DNA from: Promethearchaeati archaeon SRVP18_Atabeyarchaeia-1
GTDB lineage: Archaea; Asgardarchaeota; Atabeyarchaeia; Atabeyarchaeales; Atabeyarchaeaceae
Direction of reading: 5' to 3'
Assembly (NCBI GenBank): GCA_037308085.1
Contig: CP147779.1
Location: forward strand, 1,184,001 to 1,248,000
Length of the DNA: 64,000 nucleotides
Shown here: piece by piece, positions 18,610-60,822 of the stretch
Position numbering within the stretch: the first letter of the stretch is position 1
Layout of the letters: every line of letters starts with the position of its first letter
Translations under genes and position numbers: made by a program
Notes under the pieces: generated by a model
What the model was told of the DNA's origin: nothing
Database searches by the model: none
Seen by the model: the letters and a program-made list of their open reading frames with translations, nothing else

Positions 18610-20022
18610 ATGTATGAAGATTTAGCAAATTTCGCACTAGACTTTGCTCAGAAGAAGGCCGGGGTCACTTATGCTGAGGTGAAGGTTGAGAGATCAGTAG
18701 GCAACGCCGTTGTCATCAAGAATGCCATGATAGATGCACTAGTCTATGCCGAAGATGAGGGACTATGCACTAGAGTAGTCACCAAGGAAGGAATTGGGTT
18801 CGCATCCACCAATATCCTCGGCAACAGTGAAGCAAAGGCTGTAGTCGACCAGGCATACAAGACTGCGCGTTCATCACGTAGGAAAACACCCATAACCTTC
18901 GCAGAGGAGAAGGGTGTCGAGGAGAAATGGACCATTGTAGAAAAAGAAAAGTTAGCGGATGTCACGCCTGAGCAACTTGTAAGCGCCGCGATGGAAACAG
19001 ACAAGTACCTAGATTCACTCGACTTGAAGTTGCCTGCAAGGATCATTCAGCTCTCGGACGACATCGCCGAGAAGTACTTCTGCAACACTGAGGGATCGAG
19101 AATATCATCAATTATACCTAGGATTGACGCTATTGCCCATATAAATGTCGAAGAAGATGGGCAAGTCGAAATGGCTTACAGAACCTATGGTTATACAGGT
19201 GGATGGGAAGGGTTAAAGAAGATCCAAATAGGCGAAACAATGGGCAACGACGCAAAGGTGCTCGCAAAGCTGATCACTGAGGGAAAGAAGCTTCCCGAAG
19301 GAGACATGGATCTGATATGTGGACCGGAAGTCACCGCTATAGCGTCGCATGAATCCTGCGGTCACCCGATGGAGGCTGACAGAATAAACGGAAGGGAAAT
19401 GAGCCAAGCAGGAAAATCCTTCGTGTCAAAAGAATTGTTGGGGCAAAGGATTGGCTCAGATGCGGTAACTATTATTGACGACCCAACAATACCTAACAGT
19501 GCAGGGTTCTACGTCTATGACGAGGAAGGCGTCAAAGCCAGACCGAGGTACCTCTACAAAAAAGGACTGATAAACGAGTTTCTGCACAACCGAGAGAGCG
19601 CTGCAATAATGGGCGGCAAGAGTAATGCTTCTTCCAGGTCAGTTAGCTACGATCGGGAAGCCATAGTGAGAATGGCCAACACTTACCTTGCCCCAGGAGA
19701 CTACACGGACGAGGAGCTTCTCGAGGATGTCAAGAAAGGCGTATGGATGGAGTCCTTCAACGAGTGGAACATTGACGATAGGAGATTTAATCAGAAGTAC
19801 ACTGGACGTGAAGCCTACCTCATCGAGAATGGGGAACGAAAACACCCTGTCAAGAACTGCGTCATTGAAACTACGACCCGCAAGTTCTGGAGCGCAGTCG
19901 ACGCCGTGTCAAAACGGCTTCAATTTGTCGCAGCGACGTGTGGGAAAGGTGACCCTGAACAAGGCATTCCAGTTCTAACAGGTGGAGCCACAGCCAGACT
20001 ACGGGAGGTGTACCTGAAGTGA
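18610..20022 (+). CDS. tldD: TldD family metalloprotease
   Basis: HESCGH, YDEEG, RMANT, CGKG. Confidence 0.93.
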   Translation: MYEDLANFALDFAQKKAGVTYAEVKVERSVGNAVVIKNAMIDALVYAEDEGLCTRVVTKEGIGFASTNILGNSEAKAVVDQAYKTARSSRRKTPITFAEEKGVEEKWTIVEKEKLADVTPEQLVSAAMETDKYLDSLDLKLPARIIQLSDDIAEKYFCNTEGSRISSIIPRIDAIAHINVEEDGQVEMAYRTYGYTGGWEGLKKIQIGETMGNDAKVLAKLITEGKKLPEGDMDLICGPEVTAIASHESCGHPMEADRINGREMSQAGKSFVSKELLGQRIGSDAVTIIDDPTIPNSAGFYVYDEEGVKARPRYLYKKGLINEFLHNRESAAIMGGKSNASSRSVSYDREAIVRMANTYLAPGDYTDEELLEDVKKGVWMESFNEWNIDDRRFNQKYTGREAYLIENGERKHPVKNCVIETTTRKFWSAVDAVSKRLQFVAATCGKGDPEQGIPVLTGGATARLREVYLK

Positions 20023-22327: not shown

Positions 22328-23734
22328 CTATGTCTGAATAGTCACATCTTGGATCCTGATCGGCGGCGATACTACGCACGATGGATAGAGCATTGGCGTA
22401 CACTTCTCTGGCTTGTCTCCAATGGCATCTATCTTCTTCGCATAGTCAAAGATGTTCCCAGCTATCCTGACATCACTTGCCGGCGTGGTCAATTCGCCAT
22501 TCTCGATTCTGAGCCCATTCAACACAGTGACCGAGAAGGAACCGTCTGGTCTTGCAGTGAAGGCAGGGTCAGACCTCTCGATATATATGCCGTCCCTGAC
22601 TTCGCTGATCATGCTATTCAGGGACATGGCTCCCGGCTTGAAAACAAGGTTGGTCGGATAGATTCTCGGGAGTCGTCTGAAACTTCTATAGTAGAAATAG
22701 TCTACACTCGGCATCTCCCATCTGACACAGTTGCCAGTGCTCTGAACAGATGCTATTCTTGCGCTTTGGCTATTGTGGAGGTAGCCTTTCAGAATGCCGT
22801 TCTCGACGAGGACCGTTCTCTTGGAGGGCATACCTTCGTCGTCCATCTTGAATGATGCAAGGCCTCCTTCGTAGGTTCCGTCGTCAACTAGGGTGAGGAT
22901 ATCAGATCCGATCTGCTTGCCTATTTTTCCCTCCAATGGAGAAGCCTTGTCCCTAACGTTATCGGCCAGAAAGGCGTTCGCAAACGCGTACGTGAAAAGC
23001 TCAGCCACGGCGTGTGGGCTTAGGACCACCGGCATCTTCTTGGGCTCAATCGTCCGGGCTCCACGATATTTCAGTATCTTACCAGAATAGTTAGATGCAA
23101 AGTTGCTAACATTGTCAGTACCTTTGACTGTCCTCTCGACATTATAGACCTCGATCTTGCTTTCTCTGTCTTCATACTTCGCAGATATTCCCAAAGCCAT
23201 TCTTACAAAGCTGCCATAGTCATCAACCATCAGCCCTTCGGTATTGACGACTGCGAATCCATGCCTAGATCGCCCGAAAAGAGAGTCGTAGACTGTTATT
23301 CTCTGAGGATCGACTTCCTTTGCAGCTTTCCTGAGAGTTACTAACTGGGACATTGCTTCTTCTGGTCCCATCTCAGCAGCATGCTTGTCGTAGATGCCAG
23401 AAACGCGCGGGTAACCGCTCGGTTTTGCTGGGAAGCTCTCAAGTCCAGGTTGAGGCTCAGCTACCTTCAACGCGCTACGAACTGATGACTTTATTGATTC
23501 ATCTTCGAGGTTGCTGAGATACGCGAATCCGAGGGAACCACCCTTTATCACGCGGATACCTGCCCCAGCGAGGGTTTGATCCCTTGTCGTAAGATTCTCC
23601 TTACCGCTGACTCTGGATATCCTCATAACAAGATTCTCTCTTGACTCAAGGAAGACTTCTACTCGCTCTGCGCCTTCCCCTTGAGCCATCTTGACGATTC
23701 TTTCGGCTGTGTGAGGCAAATCCATTGAGGACAA
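22328..23734 (-). CDS. pmbA: TldE/PmbA family protein
   Basis: GIRV..GG.LGF, DDEG, LVENGIL, STGN, IENGE. Confidence 0.9.
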   Translation of the reverse strand: MSSMDLPHTAERIVKMAQGEGAERVEVFLESRENLVMRISRVSGKENLTTRDQTLAGAGIRVIKGGSLGFAYLSNLEDESIKSSVRSALKVAEPQPGLESFPAKPSGYPRVSGIYDKHAAEMGPEEAMSQLVTLRKAAKEVDPQRITVYDSLFGRSRHGFAVVNTEGLMVDDYGSFVRMALGISAKYEDRESKIEVYNVERTVKGTDNVSNFASNYSGKILKYRGARTIEPKKMPVVLSPHAVAELFTYAFANAFLADNVRDKASPLEGKIGKQIGSDILTLVDDGTYEGGLASFKMDDEGMPSKRTVLVENGILKGYLHNSQSARIASVQSTGNCVRWEMPSVDYFYYRSFRRLPRIYPTNLVFKPGAMSLNSMISEVRDGIYIERSDPAFTARPDGSFSVTVLNGLRIENGELTTPASDVRIAGNIFDYAKKIDAIGDKPEKCTPMLYPSCVVSPPIRIQDVTIQT

Positions 23735-23781
23735 GGTCTAGGTTCCACTCCTTGCTATCAACTCATTGACAATTCAGCATT

Positions 23782-25203
23782 CTATCCTATTCTCAGCTCA
23801 CTGAATCTCAGGTGCGGGCCAGCCCCTGAGGTAACCATCGACTCCTCTTCTTCCGTCAACCTTATCTGAAGAACTTCAAAGTCACTCCCAACGCCATCAA
23901 TGTTCTTCAATTCATTGACAATGTCAAGGGTGAAGCTCGGCGACAAGACAGCTCTTCCAAGCTTTCCGTTCTTTATCAAATAACCCCTCTCCGCATTGCC
24001 ACTCATAATGCGCGTTGTGCTGGCGCCCGTGAGCCCCGTCAGATAGATACCATCCTTTATTCCTTCAACCATCTCCTCAAACTTCAGGTCGCCAGACTTC
24101 ACTATCGTGTTAGACACGTATGGGCGGGGCGCGAAGAGGGCATTCTGGCATCTTGCATGTCCTTCAACGACAGTATTGAACAGGTATGCAGTGGTCTTGC
24201 TGTGCAAATATGATTTCAACACGCCATTCTCAATCAGCGTCGTGGGTCTTGCTAAGACACCTTCCTCATCATACTTATAGAAAACTGGAAGCCCAGGAGA
24301 AGTTGGATCATCATAAAGAACGAACGACTCGGGCGCTAGTTGCTCACCTAGTCTGCCCGCAAACCCGCCAAGCTCACCTTCAGGTATCAGGGCATTATGA
24401 GCACAACCCATCAACCCCGTGCTTGACGCCAAGAGTCCAGTCAACCTAGGATCGAGGATAGCTGGAAGCTTCCCTGAGGGAGGCTCCTCTGCTGACAGAA
24501 GCTCAACGGCATCCTTGGCGACCTGTTGGGCCGAACTCAGCGGATCAGCCATGGCCATTAGTTCCTGCCCGGCGCTGGCACCGATTCTTCCTATGCACCT
24601 CGAGATTCTGGCGCCCTCGCGGGCGGTGACTATCGTGCGCAGTTCGGTGTACGGGTGCGATTCCTGTATCTTCGAGCCGTCTGAGTTGACGAAGAACCTC
24701 TCATAGACTTCGTCGATGTATCTAAAATTAGTTCCGACGATCCTTTCGTCGGTTGAGCGTGCCGCAGCATCACAGGATAGAATTATCTCCTTCTTCTCGT
24801 CGATGGGAACTTCCCTTGGGTCAGTCACATCCCCCAACTTCACGTCATCTTCGACTTGAGGCGCAGAGGCTAGTCCAACTTTCTCCTTGAAGTTCACGCT
24901 TGCTGCTTCAGCTATCTTCGTTGCCCTCTCGGCGGCTTGACCTATCGCCTCTTTGTCCTGTCGTGTAAAAATCGACAAGCCAATGGTTCCCTTGAGCACT
25001 CTTACGCTGCCAGCAAGTTCAATTGATGGAATTATCCGCTCAACTTTCCCATTAGTCACGACTATCATGTTGCTATAAATCCTCTGGAGTCTAATGTCTG
25101 CGTGCTCCACCTTATGCTTCGATACGAGTTTGCTAAGTGCAGCCTCGAGAATATCTATCACCGGACAATACCCCCCCGTTTCAGGCACGTCGCGTATGAC
25201 CAA
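23782..25203 (-). CDS. TldD-like protein lacking the HExxGH metal site
   Basis: ADIR, DDPT, YDEEG, GHAR, SNT motifs present; LLASSTG where HExxGH is expected; no C-terminal CGK. Confidence 0.85.
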   Translation of the reverse strand: MVIRDVPETGGYCPVIDILEAALSKLVSKHKVEHADIRLQRIYSNMIVVTNGKVERIIPSIELAGSVRVLKGTIGLSIFTRQDKEAIGQAAERATKIAEAASVNFKEKVGLASAPQVEDDVKLGDVTDPREVPIDEKKEIILSCDAAARSTDERIVGTNFRYIDEVYERFFVNSDGSKIQESHPYTELRTIVTAREGARISRCIGRIGASAGQELMAMADPLSSAQQVAKDAVELLSAEEPPSGKLPAILDPRLTGLLASSTGLMGCAHNALIPEGELGGFAGRLGEQLAPESFVLYDDPTSPGLPVFYKYDEEGVLARPTTLIENGVLKSYLHSKTTAYLFNTVVEGHARCQNALFAPRPYVSNTIVKSGDLKFEEMVEGIKDGIYLTGLTGASTTRIMSGNAERGYLIKNGKLGRAVLSPSFTLDIVNELKNIDGVGSDFEVLQIRLTEEEESMVTSGAGPHLRFSELRIG

Positions 25204-56334: not shown

Positions 56335-57768
56335 TCACGCAGATATTTTGACGTTTGAGAACCTGATGGATGGCGTGATTGTGACTCTGTGCCTGAGCTC
56401 ATCTTCGTAGGTTCTGACGTCGTTACCTACTTCATTTACGTTCCTCAGAAGCTGCACTATGTCTGACCCTATCATGGCTTCCTTCACGGGGTATTTTATC
56501 TCTCCGCCCTCGATTTTGAACGCTGTTTGGACTCCAATTGAAAAGGCCCCTGACACTTGATTGGAAGTGTGAGCACCTATTACGGTGTATGCGAGTACTC
56601 CGTCTTCAACTTCTGATATTAGCTTCTCAAGGTCCTTAGTTCCGGGTCTAACTACGATGTTGCTTGTCTCTATTATTGGTTCAGAACTATAGGTTCTGAG
56701 TCCCGTGACATCCTTTCTTGTTGAGTTACCTGTGCTTTTGGTGTTAGCTTGATTGGCCCAAAGTGAATCATAGAGGAAAGAATTGATGACTCCCTTCTCG
56801 ATTAGGCGTGTGTTCTTTCTTGGGTTGCCTTCATCGTCGAATGACTGCGAAGCGAATCCCTTCTCAATTACGCCGTTATCCTCAATCGAGATGAGATCAG
56901 ATAGAATCTTCTTCCCCAACTTACCCGCAAAGGGGGTTTTGTTCCGTTGAAGGTTGTCTCCCATAAACGCTGGATGTATAGTGTGTGCGAAGAGATCACC
57001 CACGGCATATGAGTGCAGCACTAGATCCATGCTTCTGGTCTCGATAGGTTTCCTCGCGAGCTGGTCCACACACAGCTTTGAGACCGTCTTACCCAGCTGC
57101 TCCACATCGACGTCACTTGAGTTCCTTGCAAGTTGCAGGTAGTCTACACCTGAGACATCCCCATCGCCCTTAGCCATAGATGAAACTCGAGCGTCGACGA
57201 GCGTCTCAGTCTCCTCAAGGTCTACACCAGCGCTATTTGCTATTGCCCTATTGTATGTAATGTACGTGATTGTGCCACTGCCCGATTCTACGCGTTTATC
57301 GTAGTTTCTCATTGCTTCGGCAAGGGTTCTTCCCTTGTCGATCAGCTCCTCTATTTGGGCGTTCCTAACCTGTTTGTCAGAGATTCCCCTGACCTTCTGG
57401 TACGTGCCCTTTGCTGGAAATGCCTTGAACCTTGGATCCTCTTCCCTTGCCCGAGCGGTTCTCAGAGCTTTCTCTATGGTTTCATTCATCGGTTTTTCAG
57501 ATAGGTTTGAAGTGCAGGAGAACCCTAGTTTCTTGCCCATTGCTACGCGAATACCCAAGCCTGACTGGACTTTGCGCTGGGCGAATGTGACTTGAAGTCT
57601 CTCAATGAAACATGCGGATATGACCCTTCGGAGTGCAAAGGCCTCAGCTTGCGTAGCTCCAGTCTTCTCAGCTCGAGCCACTGCCTTGGACGCGGTTGGA
57701 GCCAAGCCGAGGTAACTGTTAAGCTTGCTCTGCTCTCCGGGACCAGTTCTAGCTTTGATGTTCGCCAT
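56335..57768 (-). CDS. pmbA: TldE/PmbA family protein
   Basis: GLGIRV, FDDEG, STGN, GAHT.N..SG.FS, IEGGE. Confidence 0.92.
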   Translation of the reverse strand: MANIKARTGPGEQSKLNSYLGLAPTASKAVARAEKTGATQAEAFALRRVISACFIERLQVTFAQRKVQSGLGIRVAMGKKLGFSCTSNLSEKPMNETIEKALRTARAREEDPRFKAFPAKGTYQKVRGISDKQVRNAQIEELIDKGRTLAEAMRNYDKRVESGSGTITYITYNRAIANSAGVDLEETETLVDARVSSMAKGDGDVSGVDYLQLARNSSDVDVEQLGKTVSKLCVDQLARKPIETRSMDLVLHSYAVGDLFAHTIHPAFMGDNLQRNKTPFAGKLGKKILSDLISIEDNGVIEKGFASQSFDDEGNPRKNTRLIEKGVINSFLYDSLWANQANTKSTGNSTRKDVTGLRTYSSEPIIETSNIVVRPGTKDLEKLISEVEDGVLAYTVIGAHTSNQVSGAFSIGVQTAFKIEGGEIKYPVKEAMIGSDIVQLLRNVNEVGNDVRTYEDELRHRVTITPSIRFSNVKISA

Positions 57769-57774
57769 TCTGGT

Positions 57775-57849
57775 TCAACCTCCACCAACCACCACATTCT
57801 TCACTCTAACACTGGTGCTCCCATTTCCCAGGGGCAGACTACCCTATTC
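57775..57849 (-). pseudogene. Displaced tldD 3' fragment (E*GSLPLGNGSTSVRVKNVVVGGG*)
   Basis: 14 of 24 codons give the same residue as the last 24 codons of tldD (59466-59395); stop lies 6 nt before the pmbA ATG. Confidence 0.85.
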
Positions 57850-59466
57850 ACGACTCGTCATTCATTTCTCATCAATGTTTAGCCAAGACTAGACTATATG
57901 TTTATCGCGATAGTTTCAGAGTGCGTGGAAAGTTGACTTAAATGGTTCTGAGCCTGAAGTCACTGGTTTTCTGCAGTATGTGAGACTGCACATGCATCAC
58001 GAGACCCTCATGGATTCCGTCTGATCTTGGTCTACTTACGGCACCCCAATGGCAAGCGGGAAGCTTAGCGAGGAATACGGCATAGACAAGAGAACTCTTC
58101 GCCGCGGGCTAGTAAAACTGATTGGCGAGAGAGAATACAAAGGGATCATGGATCGAAATGTGAAACAGAGGAAGAAACAGGTTCCGCTAGAGTGGGCACT
58201 CAGAAGACTAAGGAACGCGGAGTTGTTAACTAAACTCAGTAACGAATATGGAGTAAGCAGGAAGACTCTGCGATCCGCCTTCCGGTTGCTGATCGGTGAA
58301 GGAGAATACAGCGCGATAATAGACAGAAAGGCTAGGAAGCAGGTTCCAATCAAAAAGGTGTTAAGGCGATTCAAGAGCGGAGAGACATTGAAGAGTCTTT
58401 GTATGGAATATCATGTCACGTGGGAAACCCTGAGGAACATTCTCACGAAGGCAATTGGTGAAGAAGAGTACCGGAAATTAGTTCCAATGCACAGGGGAGG
58501 AAGAGCGCGGAGACAACTTCCAGTTCAGGAAGTTTTGACGAGAGTCAAAGCCGGTCAGTCACTAGGAAGACTTGCCAAAGCTTACAATGTAAGCTGGCTG
58601 ACTTTGAAGCGTAGGCTGGTAGAACTAGTTGGCAAAGACGGATATAAGTCGGCTAGAAAACGAACAACGCGAATCCGAGTGAAACCTCGAAGGGCCACAG
58701 TGGGATACGGCTCTCCTCTTGCAAAGGAAAATGGGGCTGACAGCCTTATTGAACTCAAGGTCAGAATGCTCCTACAGAATAACAGGGTTTCCTTCGGATA
58801 TCGGGAAAGCCTAGTTGTCAGGGGACACTGCTATGAACCAGACTTCATGTTCGGTGATAGGACCATCGTTGAGGTCATGGGAGTCACGAATACTGAGTAT
58901 TGGACGCGGTGCCACAAGAAACTGTAAGATTACGTCGGAAGTGCCTATAGAGTCATTGCAGTGATACCAGACTACTTAATCGACATAAGAAGCAAGTATA
59001 TTCCAAAAGGAGTCAGCATGATCAGGTACAACGACTTCACGAATAACATCGAAAGATACATAAAACAATTAGTGAACAAAACTAATATCGACAACTCAGC
59101 CATTCACTGATGAACTGCCACTCACGCGTGGTGATTTCAAGCATCATCGACAGTATTGCTGCAGGGGCTGGAAAAGATCCCATATTCTTCTTCCGTTAGA
59201 TCTCGACCCAGCTTGTCAAACCCTTTCCGACGTCGGATTTTGATTGGGGGAATCATACTGATGGGAGATTAGTCGGAGTTCCAGATGGGGCCCATAATAT
59301 ACCCCCTTGCCGAAGTAGAGCCTTGGTACTACCCTGCCTGTTTCAAGGAAATCGGTTGGAGGTTTCTCGCATGTTTCCAGTCTGGCGACCACTACTGCCC
59401 GCCGACAACAACATTTCGGATTCTTGTGCTACTCCCTCCATTACCCACGGGCAAATTGCTCTGTTC
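57850..59466. mobile_element. Endonuclease cassette at the tldD 3' end, carrying a replacement C-terminus (boundaries approximate)
   Basis: Splits the tldD-pmbA operon; tldD 3' end present on both sides. Confidence 0.7.
58049..59110 (+). pseudogene. Tandem-HTH-repeat + PD-(D/E)xK (Vsr/DUF559-like) endonuclease with an in-frame TAA
   Basis: Four ~54-aa repeats (L..EYGVS..TL...L..LIGE.EY), then S.IE...YEPDF...IVEV.G...YW; TAA at 58925-58927, frame stays open 60 more codons to TGA at 59110. Confidence 0.78.
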
Positions 59467-60822
59467 ATTCTTACCACAGAATCCTATGCCAGCCACCGAG
59501 AAGTCTTTTCCGACTGCATCGATATTCTGAAGTGTCTCCAGAGTTAGTCCGCTCAATGAGACGTCGAGGAGCGGTTTCGTGACTTGACCCTTTTCGATCA
59601 AGAAGGCTTCCTGGGCTGAGAACTGGAACGATCCTATCGCGATGTTAACTTGGCCTCCTCTGGTTCCTTTCACATAAATGCCGTTTCTGATATCCTCAAT
59701 TAGTTCATCAAATGAGTAGTCTCCAGGGGCGATGTACGTGTTGGACATGCGAGGGATCGGACGGAAGTGGTATCCTTGGGCTCTGGCTCCCCCGTTTGGT
59801 GCGAGATTTAGCTTAGCCGCGGCTTCCCTGTTCAAGATGTATTCTCGAAGTACGCCTTTCTCGATTATCGTTCTTTTCTTCGCTAGTGTTCCCTCAGAAT
59901 CATATTTGAAAGACCCGAAGCCATCAGGGACGCTTGGATCATCGTAGACTGTCGCCACTTCTGAACCGACCTTCTGTCCAAGCTTCCCAGTCAGTACACT
60001 CTCCCCAGAGATTACAAAGTCAGCTTCAGCGGCATGTCCAAGCGCTTCATGGACGAAGACGCCTATGTGCTCGGGATCTGCAACCACGGTAAATCGGCCA
60101 CCTGTTGCTTGCTCAGCTTTCAACAAAGCCGAAGCTTTGTTGGCAGTCTCCTTAGCGGTCGAGTCAAGGTCCTTCTCAAGAAACTTCTCAAATCCTCCCA
60201 TAGCACCGATCCTCTTCCGGTACTGACGGATCTTGTCCCCCTCCTTAGCGACTGGAACGAAGACGAGTGATCCCCTTGAAGGCTCACCTGTGATCTTCGA
60301 GCCTTCGCTATTGAGAAAAATGGTTTTCCCATAAGAATCGCCGTAGGTGACGGAGGCGCTAGCTATACTTGGGTTCTCTCGGATCACACGTGAGAGCTTC
60401 AGCGCTAGACCAAGCTTCTCATCGATCGGGACATTGGCGAAAGGCGTCTTCGCCTTGGCAATAAGTGAGTCCTCAATCTTCCTCAATCGGGCTATCTTGA
60501 CCTTCTCCTTGAGGTGCTCACTCGTCGCCTTAGCCATCTTGAAAGCGGCTTCGACGCCCCCCATGATCTCTTCGCGCGATATATCAGATGATGCAGCAAA
60601 ACCCCAGGCGCCATTAGCGAGCACTCGAATTCCGATTCCCTCACTGTAACTTGAAGTTGCCTGGTCAATCGTTTTGTCCCCCACGACTATCGATGTCGCG
60701 CTCATCATCTCGATCCTCATATCTGTGTACTCGGATCCAAGCTTGTCGGAATAATCAAGAGCCTTCTCAGAGATATCAAGAACATCCAATACCTGTAGAA
60801 CCTCCGAAAACAAGTCACTCAA
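59392..60822 (-). CDS. tldD: TldD family metalloprotease
   Basis: GIGIRVL, HEALGH, YDSEG, PRMSNT, GGQV, CGK. Confidence 0.95.
   Translation of the reverse strand: MSDLFSEVLQVLDVLDISEKALDYSDKLGSEYTDMRIEMMSATSIVVGDKTIDQATSSYSEGIGIRVLANGAWGFAASSDISREEIMGGVEAAFKMAKATSEHLKEKVKIARLRKIEDSLIAKAKTPFANVPIDEKLGLALKLSRVIRENPSIASASVTYGDSYGKTIFLNSEGSKITGEPSRGSLVFVPVAKEGDKIRQYRKRIGAMGGFEKFLEKDLDSTAKETANKASALLKAEQATGGRFTVVADPEHIGVFVHEALGHAAEADFVISGESVLTGKLGQKVGSEVATVYDDPSVPDGFGSFKYDSEGTLAKKRTIIEKGVLREYILNREAAAKLNLAPNGGARAQGYHFRPIPRMSNTYIAPGDYSFDELIEDIRNGIYVKGTRGGQVNIAIGSFQFSAQEAFLIEKGQVTKPLLDVSLSGLTLETLQNIDAVGKDFSVAGIGFCGKNEQSNLPVGNGGSSTRIRNVVVGGQ

Follow-up and report, generated by a model that had tools for sequence, protein, structure and literature searches.

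We examined the tldD and pmbA genes in a 64,000-nucleotide stretch of the Atabeyarchaeia-1 genome (contig CP147779.1, positions 1,184,001 to 1,248,000), which lies within one 2,808,651-bp contig and is called the window below; coordinates are window positions unless a genome contig or another locus is named. The two genes lie 6 nt apart in five relatives and 1.6 kb apart here. The intervening DNA carries a single gene, convergent with tldD, which is placed between the present end of tldD and a second, orphan copy of a tldD 3' end that adjoins pmbA. The features of the locus are as follows.

60822-59392, minus strand: tldD (476 aa), with three PmbA_TldD Pfam domains
59470..60822, minus strand: native, vertically inherited portion of the hybrid tldD (core tree and identity to locus L088)
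59392..59469, minus strand: foreign 3' end of tldD, about 25 codons and the stop, in frame with the native portion (identity switch and breakpoint test)
about 59469-57850: insert, approximately 1.6 kb
59114..59391, no strand: spacer from the tldD stop to the original end of the endonuclease-like gene
58049..59107, plus strand: endonuclease-like gene, an apparent pseudogene, convergent with tldD (translation and alignment to intact homologues)
58049-58927, plus strand: open portion of the endonuclease-like gene, 292 codons
58925..58927, plus strand: in-frame TAA nonsense codon
58049..58640, plus strand: four tandem helix-turn-helix (HTH) repeats of about 55 aa each, a predicted DNA-binding array (Pfam HTH families and direct repeat D1)
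58641..59107, plus strand: T7-endonuclease-I-like PD-(D/E)xK domain, interrupted by the TAA (AlphaFold, Foldseek and profile match)
57850..58048, no strand: right-hand flank of the insert, 199 nt, a divergent region between the endonuclease start and the orphan and pmbA
57775..57849, minus strand: orphan native tldD 3' end, 24 codons and a stop, codon 2 being TAG
57778..57783, minus strand: GGAGGT Shine-Dalgarno sequence of pmbA, inside the final orphan codons (read from the sequence)
57774-57769: 6-nt gap from the orphan stop to pmbA
56335..57768, minus strand: pmbA, intact, 477 aa (PmbA_TldD Pfam domains)

Both tldD and pmbA carry all three PmbA_TldD domains, the third with Pfam E-values of 1e-67 and 3e-66, respectively, and pmbA is 78% identical to the pmbA of locus L088 over its full length. 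The spacer at 59114..59391 contained no convincing open reading frame (ORF) and no Rfam family at threshold. The right-hand flank at 57850..58048 showed no similarity to tldD (13-17 of 75 nt) and none to the other loci.

On the minus strand, the orphan (57849-57775) reads E, a stop and then GSLPLGNGSTSVRVKNVVVGGG up to its final stop, while the present end of tldD (59466-59392) reads EQSNLPVGNGGSSTRIRNVVVGGQ up to its stop. The preliminary description of this locus, which had proposed a tldD-pmbA operon split by a nuclease insert, gave an ungapped alignment of the two tails with 14 of 24 residues identical, 9 of those through different codons, and these figures proved exact; at the nucleotide level 44 of 75 positions are identical (59%). 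It had also placed the pmbA Shine-Dalgarno sequence GGAGGT (57783-57778) within the orphan, and correctly so, as the orphan stop TGA (57777-57775) precedes the pmbA ATG (57768) by 6 nt. Its statement that the orphan is fused to the pmbA start holds for adjacency, with a stop and then 6 nt between the two, and not for an in-frame fusion. A Smith-Waterman comparison of the TldD C-terminus with the translated spacer between the genes gave a score of 80, compared with 23.8 +/- 3.6 (maximum 37) for 200 shuffles of the DNA, which excludes chance similarity. Because 9 of the 14 common residues use different codons, both tails appear to have evolved under selection, which points to divergence as functional coding sequence in separate lineages rather than to a decaying local duplicate. 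Wetland metagenome contigs from a different study were near-identical to the window and crossed both insert junctions (X2, 56699-57949 and 58896-60573; X4, 57693-58108), so the locus is not an assembly artefact. One wetland contig carries a 1-nt deletion within the orphan, at 57831, a weak hint that the upstream portion of the orphan is unconstrained. The 3' ends of the seven other tldD paralogues of this genome (G000) matched either tail at no more than 35 of 75 nt, none of them closely, and the insert DNA is single-copy in the genome; a paralogue within G000 as the source of either tail was ruled out by these two results.

The junction was then compared among orthologues of tldD, a group defined by an identity of at least 69%, with the next matches dropping to 54%. 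All five insert-free orthologous loci (L008, which is the tldD locus of G002, a relative in the same family, as well as L088, L090, L030 and L101; the latter four are metagenome contigs) have the tldD stop, 6 nt and the pmbA start, which is the junction found at the orphan. The orphan reproduces this ancestral junction including the GG-rich final codons that hold GGAGGT, and the same GG-rich end is present in the insert-free orthologues. The comparison of junctions that the preliminary description had called for thus bore out its reading, and the tandem arrangement of two full tldD genes that it had set against that reading was seen at the locus in none of the relatives. L030 was the one further close orthologue obtained when metagenome contigs were scanned with TldD, and a scan of genome contigs with the nuclease alignment for more orthologous loci yielded nothing.

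To decide which tail is native, the TldD core and the tails were analysed separately. In a maximum likelihood tree of the core, with the tail excluded, G000 and L088 were sisters with a support of 100/100, and upstream of about position -78 from its end the present tldD had L088 as its nearest allele, with 82-92% nucleotide identity over the 220 nt ahead of the breakpoint (60-nt windows up to 92%) and 65 of 75 identical nt at -150 to -76. Within the last 45 nt the affinity switches: the present tail matched L088 at only 23 of 45 nt (51%) and L089, which belongs to another clade, at 33 of 45 (73%), while the orphan matched L088 at 33 of 45 (73%) and, within the last 21 nt, at 20 of 21. A maximum chi-square breakpoint test on informative sites (G000 with L088 versus L089) placed a breakpoint near the tldD 3' end (permutation p = 18/5000, 0.004), and 11 of 12 informative sites to the right of it favour L089. 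The break is placed, on the left, approximately at 59475-59457 and, on the right, at 57850/57849, just past the highly conserved GFCGK codons. L089 also shares the initial 50 nt of the spacer beyond the tldD stop, i.e., its similarity extends into the insert. Given the core tree, the tail identities, the breakpoint and this similarity to L089 within the insert, the present tldD tail is foreign and the orphan native. The suggestion of the preliminary description that the present 3' end of tldD had come with the insert, and its question as to which 75-nt end is the vertically inherited one, are answered in the same direction by these comparisons.

The inserted gene was expected from the preliminary description to encode a nuclease, and our analyses agree. 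Pfam and NCBIfam scans of the protein returned HTH domains only, with no LAGLIDADG, GIY-YIG, transposase or integrase domain; the four repeats of about 55 aa score as HTH (Pfam GntR, HTH_28 and HTH_7), and no Pfam family was assigned to the C-terminal domain. The protein is 57-58% identical to the intact homologues P0004, P0005 and P0006, and the DNA similarity of the gene to L027, L028 and L029 extends to 59054. An AlphaFold2 model of an intact homologue (m2e01cf038800) has a core with a pLDDT of about 90 and the element order alpha-beta-beta-beta-alpha-beta, and its top Foldseek matches were all PD-(D/E)xK nucleases (Bax1, T7 endonuclease I, I-Bth0305I, Vsr and PspGI), with probabilities of about 1 and E-values of 1e-3 to 1e-2 (5e-3 for I-Bth0305I). 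A profile built from six homologous C-terminal domains (alignment A1) and searched against PDB sequences matched T7 endonuclease I (chain 2pfj_A, E = 2.1e-6), and family members scored 13.7-19.3 bits with Pfam PF05367, whose gathering cut-off is 29.1. Residues Glu, Asp and Glu matching E20, D55 and E65 of T7 endonuclease I are invariant in the family. An invariant Lys (K87) lies 16 residues after the canonical catalytic Lys position, and from the alignment it is a candidate for an alternative catalytic Lys. The number of HTH repeats ranges from 4 to about nine across members with a common nuclease domain (P0001, P0004 and ORFs in L092 and L091), a range suggestive of a DNA-reading array that is modular and can be extended.

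In the window copy, a TAA stands where all homologues encode Lys, and it interrupts the gene midway through the nuclease domain. This nonsense codon removes about 60 codons, including conserved strands, and it is also present in the independent wetland runs X2 and X4, for which no difference is listed at this position. Since the frame beyond the TAA is still open and alignable with the intact homologues (to 59107), the window copy appears to be a recent pseudogene, and its nuclease gene is probably dead. Over 58933-59029 (minus strand), within the part of the gene after the stop, there is also a sub-threshold Rfam match to the fungal C/D-box snoRNA Afu_264 (23 bits versus a gathering score of 40, E = 0.13), which is most likely due to chance.

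Homologues of the inserted gene were found behind tldD at other loci. In L027 and L029 they have 57-58% identity and lie convergent, 40-55 nt beyond the orthologous tldD, and L099 has a 29-aa relic at the equivalent position, so that the site is occupied in G000, L027 and L029, holds a relic in L099 and is empty in five loci. The core tree twice pairs an occupied allele with an empty sister, namely L027 with L090 (99/96) and G000 with L088. Between L027 (2473-2517) and L100 (3808-3852), 43 of the final 45 nt of tldD agree (96%), even though the cores of these two alleles, with 82% identity, fall into separate sub-clades, which marks a second, independent tail exchange; the endonuclease gene was not seen in the 450 nt available downstream in L100. 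A TnpB/IS605 OrfB gene lies directly upstream of tldD in L027. The family is small: a search of 1.84 billion proteins gave 29 cluster representatives at E <= 1e-10. Across 400 scanned genomes of the phylum, strong matches were confined to the three genomes of the class of the window, which is represented in the collection by three species genomes. Members occupy different loci in each of the three, and relics are present as well.

Each of the three long copies in G000 runs convergently towards the 3' end of a conserved gene, namely tldD, EF-2 and an ADP-forming acetyl-CoA synthetase. The copy beside EF-2 (G000:C1, about 101550-103316; L091 5550-7316, plus strand) encodes 588 aa with about nine HTH repeats and is apparently intact, and the 3' end of the EF-2 gene (L091 7466-9670, minus strand) faces it. 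Compared with its G002 orthologue, this EF-2 gene has 64-76% nucleotide identity in its last ~320 nt and 74-93% elsewhere, with the protein conserved; the low-identity end could be a co-conversion tract. The third copy (G000:C1, about 992640-993683; L092 4640-5683, minus strand) encodes 347 aa with four HTH repeats and faces the 3' end of an ADP-forming acetyl-CoA synthetase-like gene (L092 2493-4235). Short relics of the nuclease domain were observed at G000:C1:33151-33408 and 450078-450344.

We take as established that the insertion occurred, that tldD is chimeric and the orphan native, that the protein has a nuclease fold, that the pairing with tldD recurs and that presence is patchy among sister alleles. 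The reading that we favour, at a probability of roughly 0.7, is that the insert is a relic of a free-standing homing-endonuclease-type cassette that carried its own replacement tldD end. The cassette would have entered the conserved GFCGK-x-EQ region, about 75 nt from the end of tldD, and would have comprised a substitute 3' end for tldD, derived from a different allele lineage, together with a short spacer, the convergent HTH-array/nuclease gene and about 200 nt of 5' flank. As the incoming 3' end was in frame, tldD was kept intact as a hybrid. The native final 24 codons would have been displaced 1.6 kb downstream and left as an untranslated orphan. Its final bases would go on providing the ribosome-binding region for pmbA, and this present role in the start of pmbA translation probably explains why the extreme 3' end of the orphan has been kept. 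The protein would cut the empty site near the GFCGK-x-EQ codons, repair of the double-strand break from an occupied allele would copy both tail and gene (homing), and the occupied allele would be immune, since its target is split and the incoming tail differs. A comparison by eye of occupied and empty alleles at -90 to -50 revealed no clean distinguishing pattern, and hence no target is proposed. In G000, the later nonsense codon in the endonuclease gene would make the element a fixed, decaying relic. Expression of pmbA may now start from inside the insert or depend on read-through, and a new pmbA promoter, if there is one, would lie in 57850-58048.

Several observations weigh against this reading. 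All six aligned members have Met or Thr (EVMG, EVTG and EAMG) where T7 endonuclease I has K67, the Lys of its E-x-K motif, and the family protein might not cut at all; because this canonical catalytic Lys is replaced throughout the family, nuclease activity is plausible from the fold and the invariant acidic residues and is not assured. The window copy is itself shortened by a stop codon. No orphan tails were found beside the EF-2 and acetyl-CoA synthetase copies, where Smith-Waterman scores of 20 and 26 were within the shuffled null. Among the contigs of three wetland runs there was no joint that skips the insert, i.e., no empty site, although such contigs drop rare variants and are thus uninformative on rare empty alleles. 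The donor allele is unsampled, the best match to the foreign end being only 73%, and the tail statistics rest on 45-75 nt. Finally, no pmbA lies within 1-2 kb in L027, which has an intact endonuclease gene (for a protein of 483 aa) on a 5470-nt contig, or in L089, which has the same tail type without the gene, and no orphan tail was found beyond the L027 endonuclease gene or beyond the L089 tldD. Since the nearest empty relatives of these two loci have pmbA 6 nt beyond tldD, the missing pmbA indicates a history more complex than a simple insertion.

Alternatively, the segment may have been brought in by ordinary recombination with DNA of a related strain (e.g., with one side joined illegitimately and the other by homology), and the HTH-nuclease-like gene would then be a passive cargo, such as a regulator or a resolvase-like protein, without a part in its own spread. 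The family-wide absence of the canonical Lys, the broken gene in the window, the lack of an empty-site polymorphism in the sampled populations and the lack of orphans adjoining the other copies all fit such an event. However, the gene stands in the same convergent position behind the orthologous tldD in at least three further loci and is absent from sister alleles, the exchange of the 3' end recurs (L027/L100), and family members are found at sites that differ from genome to genome, with relics left behind. This recurrence is predicted by a self-promoting element and not by a passive cargo gene, and we therefore regard passive cargo as unlikely, though it deserves more weight than any of the explanations that follow.

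An ancient insertion in the common ancestor, with precise later loss in L088, L090, L101, L030 and G002 and divergence of the tails in place, would agree with the low identity (57-58%) between the endonucleases of G000 and of L027 and L029, which fits a long vertical descent. Yet it requires at least 4-5 independent precise losses, each restoring the stop and the 6-nt junction, and it leaves unexplained why a non-coding orphan best matches the functional end of the sister L088 and why the differences at 9 of the 14 common residues are synonymous only. We consider this history very improbable. Still less credible is an origin of the orphan by deletion from two tandem tldD copies or by gene conversion from one of the seven other paralogues. 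The many tldD/pmbA paralogue pairs in the genome would have offered material for such events, but no relative has a tandem tldD at the locus, the paralogue ends are as distant from both copies as given above and the insert is single-copy, and merely 75 nt of tldD are duplicated, flanking a foreign gene. The weakest proposal would class the insert as an insertion sequence or transposon, an integrase-borne islet, an intron or an intein, for despite its 1.6-kb size, typical of insertion sequences, and its HTH domains, common in transposases, it lacks both terminal inverted repeats and an identical target duplication (the duplicated tails are 59% identical and coding) and has no transposase or integrase domain, tldD reaches its stop ahead of the insert, Rfam returned no intron family, and an ORF on the opposite strand makes an intein impossible. 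In line with this, the ends of the insert showed neither terminal inverted nor direct repeats and no integrase, transposase or intron signal. An integrase-borne island with att sites was rejected as a candidate, the single ORF not being an integrase and no exact direct repeat flanking the insert.

The homing-endonuclease-type cassette has its closest counterpart in the mORF gene hybrids of fungal mitochondria, known from atp6 of Allomyces macrogynus, atp6, atp9, cox2 and nad3 of Glomus sp., atp9 of Rhizopus and cox2 of Mortierella, in which it is the inserted C-terminus that is expressed, the native C* tail being nearer to the relatives (PMC3630166). In both systems a host core is joined in frame to an inserted C-terminus and accompanied by an endonuclease ORF and a displaced native C*-terminus, and the native tail matches a close relative better than the inserted tail does; the tail differences are mostly synonymous and the presence is patchy among close relatives. 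The tldD cassette differs in that it resides in a 2.8 Mb archaeal chromosome rather than an organelle, in that its endonuclease combines an HTH array with a T7-endonuclease-I-like domain instead of being of the LAGLIDADG or GIY-YIG type, and in that its ORF is convergent with the host gene, whereas that of a mORF is co-directional or fused. Unlike a mORF, the tldD insertion also splits an operon, which leaves the ribosome-binding site of the downstream gene inside the orphan.

Free-standing homing endonucleases of phages, such as seg and mob of T4 ('intronless homing') and F-CphI of cyanophage S-PM2 (PMC2790892, PMC2988022, PMC6083498), likewise lie outside an intron or intein and adjoin a conserved target gene, with flanks co-converted on spread. 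F-CphI offers a further likeness, as a junction-resolvase-type module (Endo VII) was recruited there for homing, as a T7-endonuclease-I-type module would have been here. The phage elements spread in mixed infections and usually without a displaced target end, whereas the tldD host is cellular, and a duplicate, diverged gene end forms part of the tldD cassette.

T7 endonuclease I itself (PDB 2pfj and 1m0d; PF05367) shares with the family the core fold and the motifs GYG...(S)-LE...Y-PDF...(V/A)-E-x-x-G. It is, however, a structure-specific Holliday-junction resolvase without a DNA-sequence reader, to which the tldD family adds 4-9 HTH repeats, and it has K67 as a catalytic residue where the family has Met or Thr. 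The restriction-endonuclease-like fold already serves homing in I-Ssp6803I (PD-(D/E)xK) and I-Bth0305I (PDB 3r3p; EDxHD). Those enzymes differ from the tldD family in being intron-encoded, in having other DNA-binding modules and in showing no detectable sequence relationship to it. In the Rhs and CdiA polymorphic toxin loci, a gene receives a new C-terminal-coding cassette by recombination within its conserved part, and the previous C-terminal piece is left downstream as an orphan; the exchanged part there is an adaptive toxin tip with its immunity gene and without an endonuclease gene. The exchanged tldD tail differs from these in being functionally equivalent to the one that it replaced and in accompanying a selfish nuclease-type gene. 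We found no description of the tldD element in the literature. A paper on the mobile elements of Atabeyarchaeia lists 14 integrated elements for Atabeyarchaeia-1 (PMC11529989), and its main text, the supplementary element table aside, mentions neither TldD nor a protein of this kind.

We tentatively suggest, at somewhat less than even odds, that the proteins with HTH repeats and a T7-endonuclease-I-like domain form a previously undescribed family of Asgard homing endonucleases that would pass from one chromosome to another by cutting a conserved gene near its 3' end and bringing along a diverged, cleavage-immune tail; they would then be the first cellular-chromosome counterpart of the mORFs, with the variable HTH array as a modular reader of long targets. 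The swap of a gene tail by an endonuclease cassette has so far been described mainly in fungal mitochondria, and the same anatomy in an archaeal chromosome with another nuclease family suggests a more general strategy, in which a selfish cassette supplies a resistant replacement for the piece of an essential gene that it destroys. The interest of the locus lies in this mitochondrial-type selfish strategy in an archaeal chromosome, in the undescribed nuclease family and in a clean chimeric gene with its displaced tail. Short foreign 3' ends of this kind can turn a conserved gene chimeric and mislead phylogenies, and an operon may be split while the orphan tail persists as the translation-start region of the next gene. 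If activity were shown, the 4-9 HTH repeats with a resolvase-type nuclease could provide a possible modular scaffold for DNA targeting.

Further copies of TldD/PmbA genes lie elsewhere in the window, at about 18619-20013 (plus strand) and 22415-25161 (minus strand), corresponding to G000:C1:1202619-1204013 and 1206415-1209161. The genome as a whole contains about eight TldD/PmbA paralogue pairs (16 matches), an unusually large number for one archaeon.

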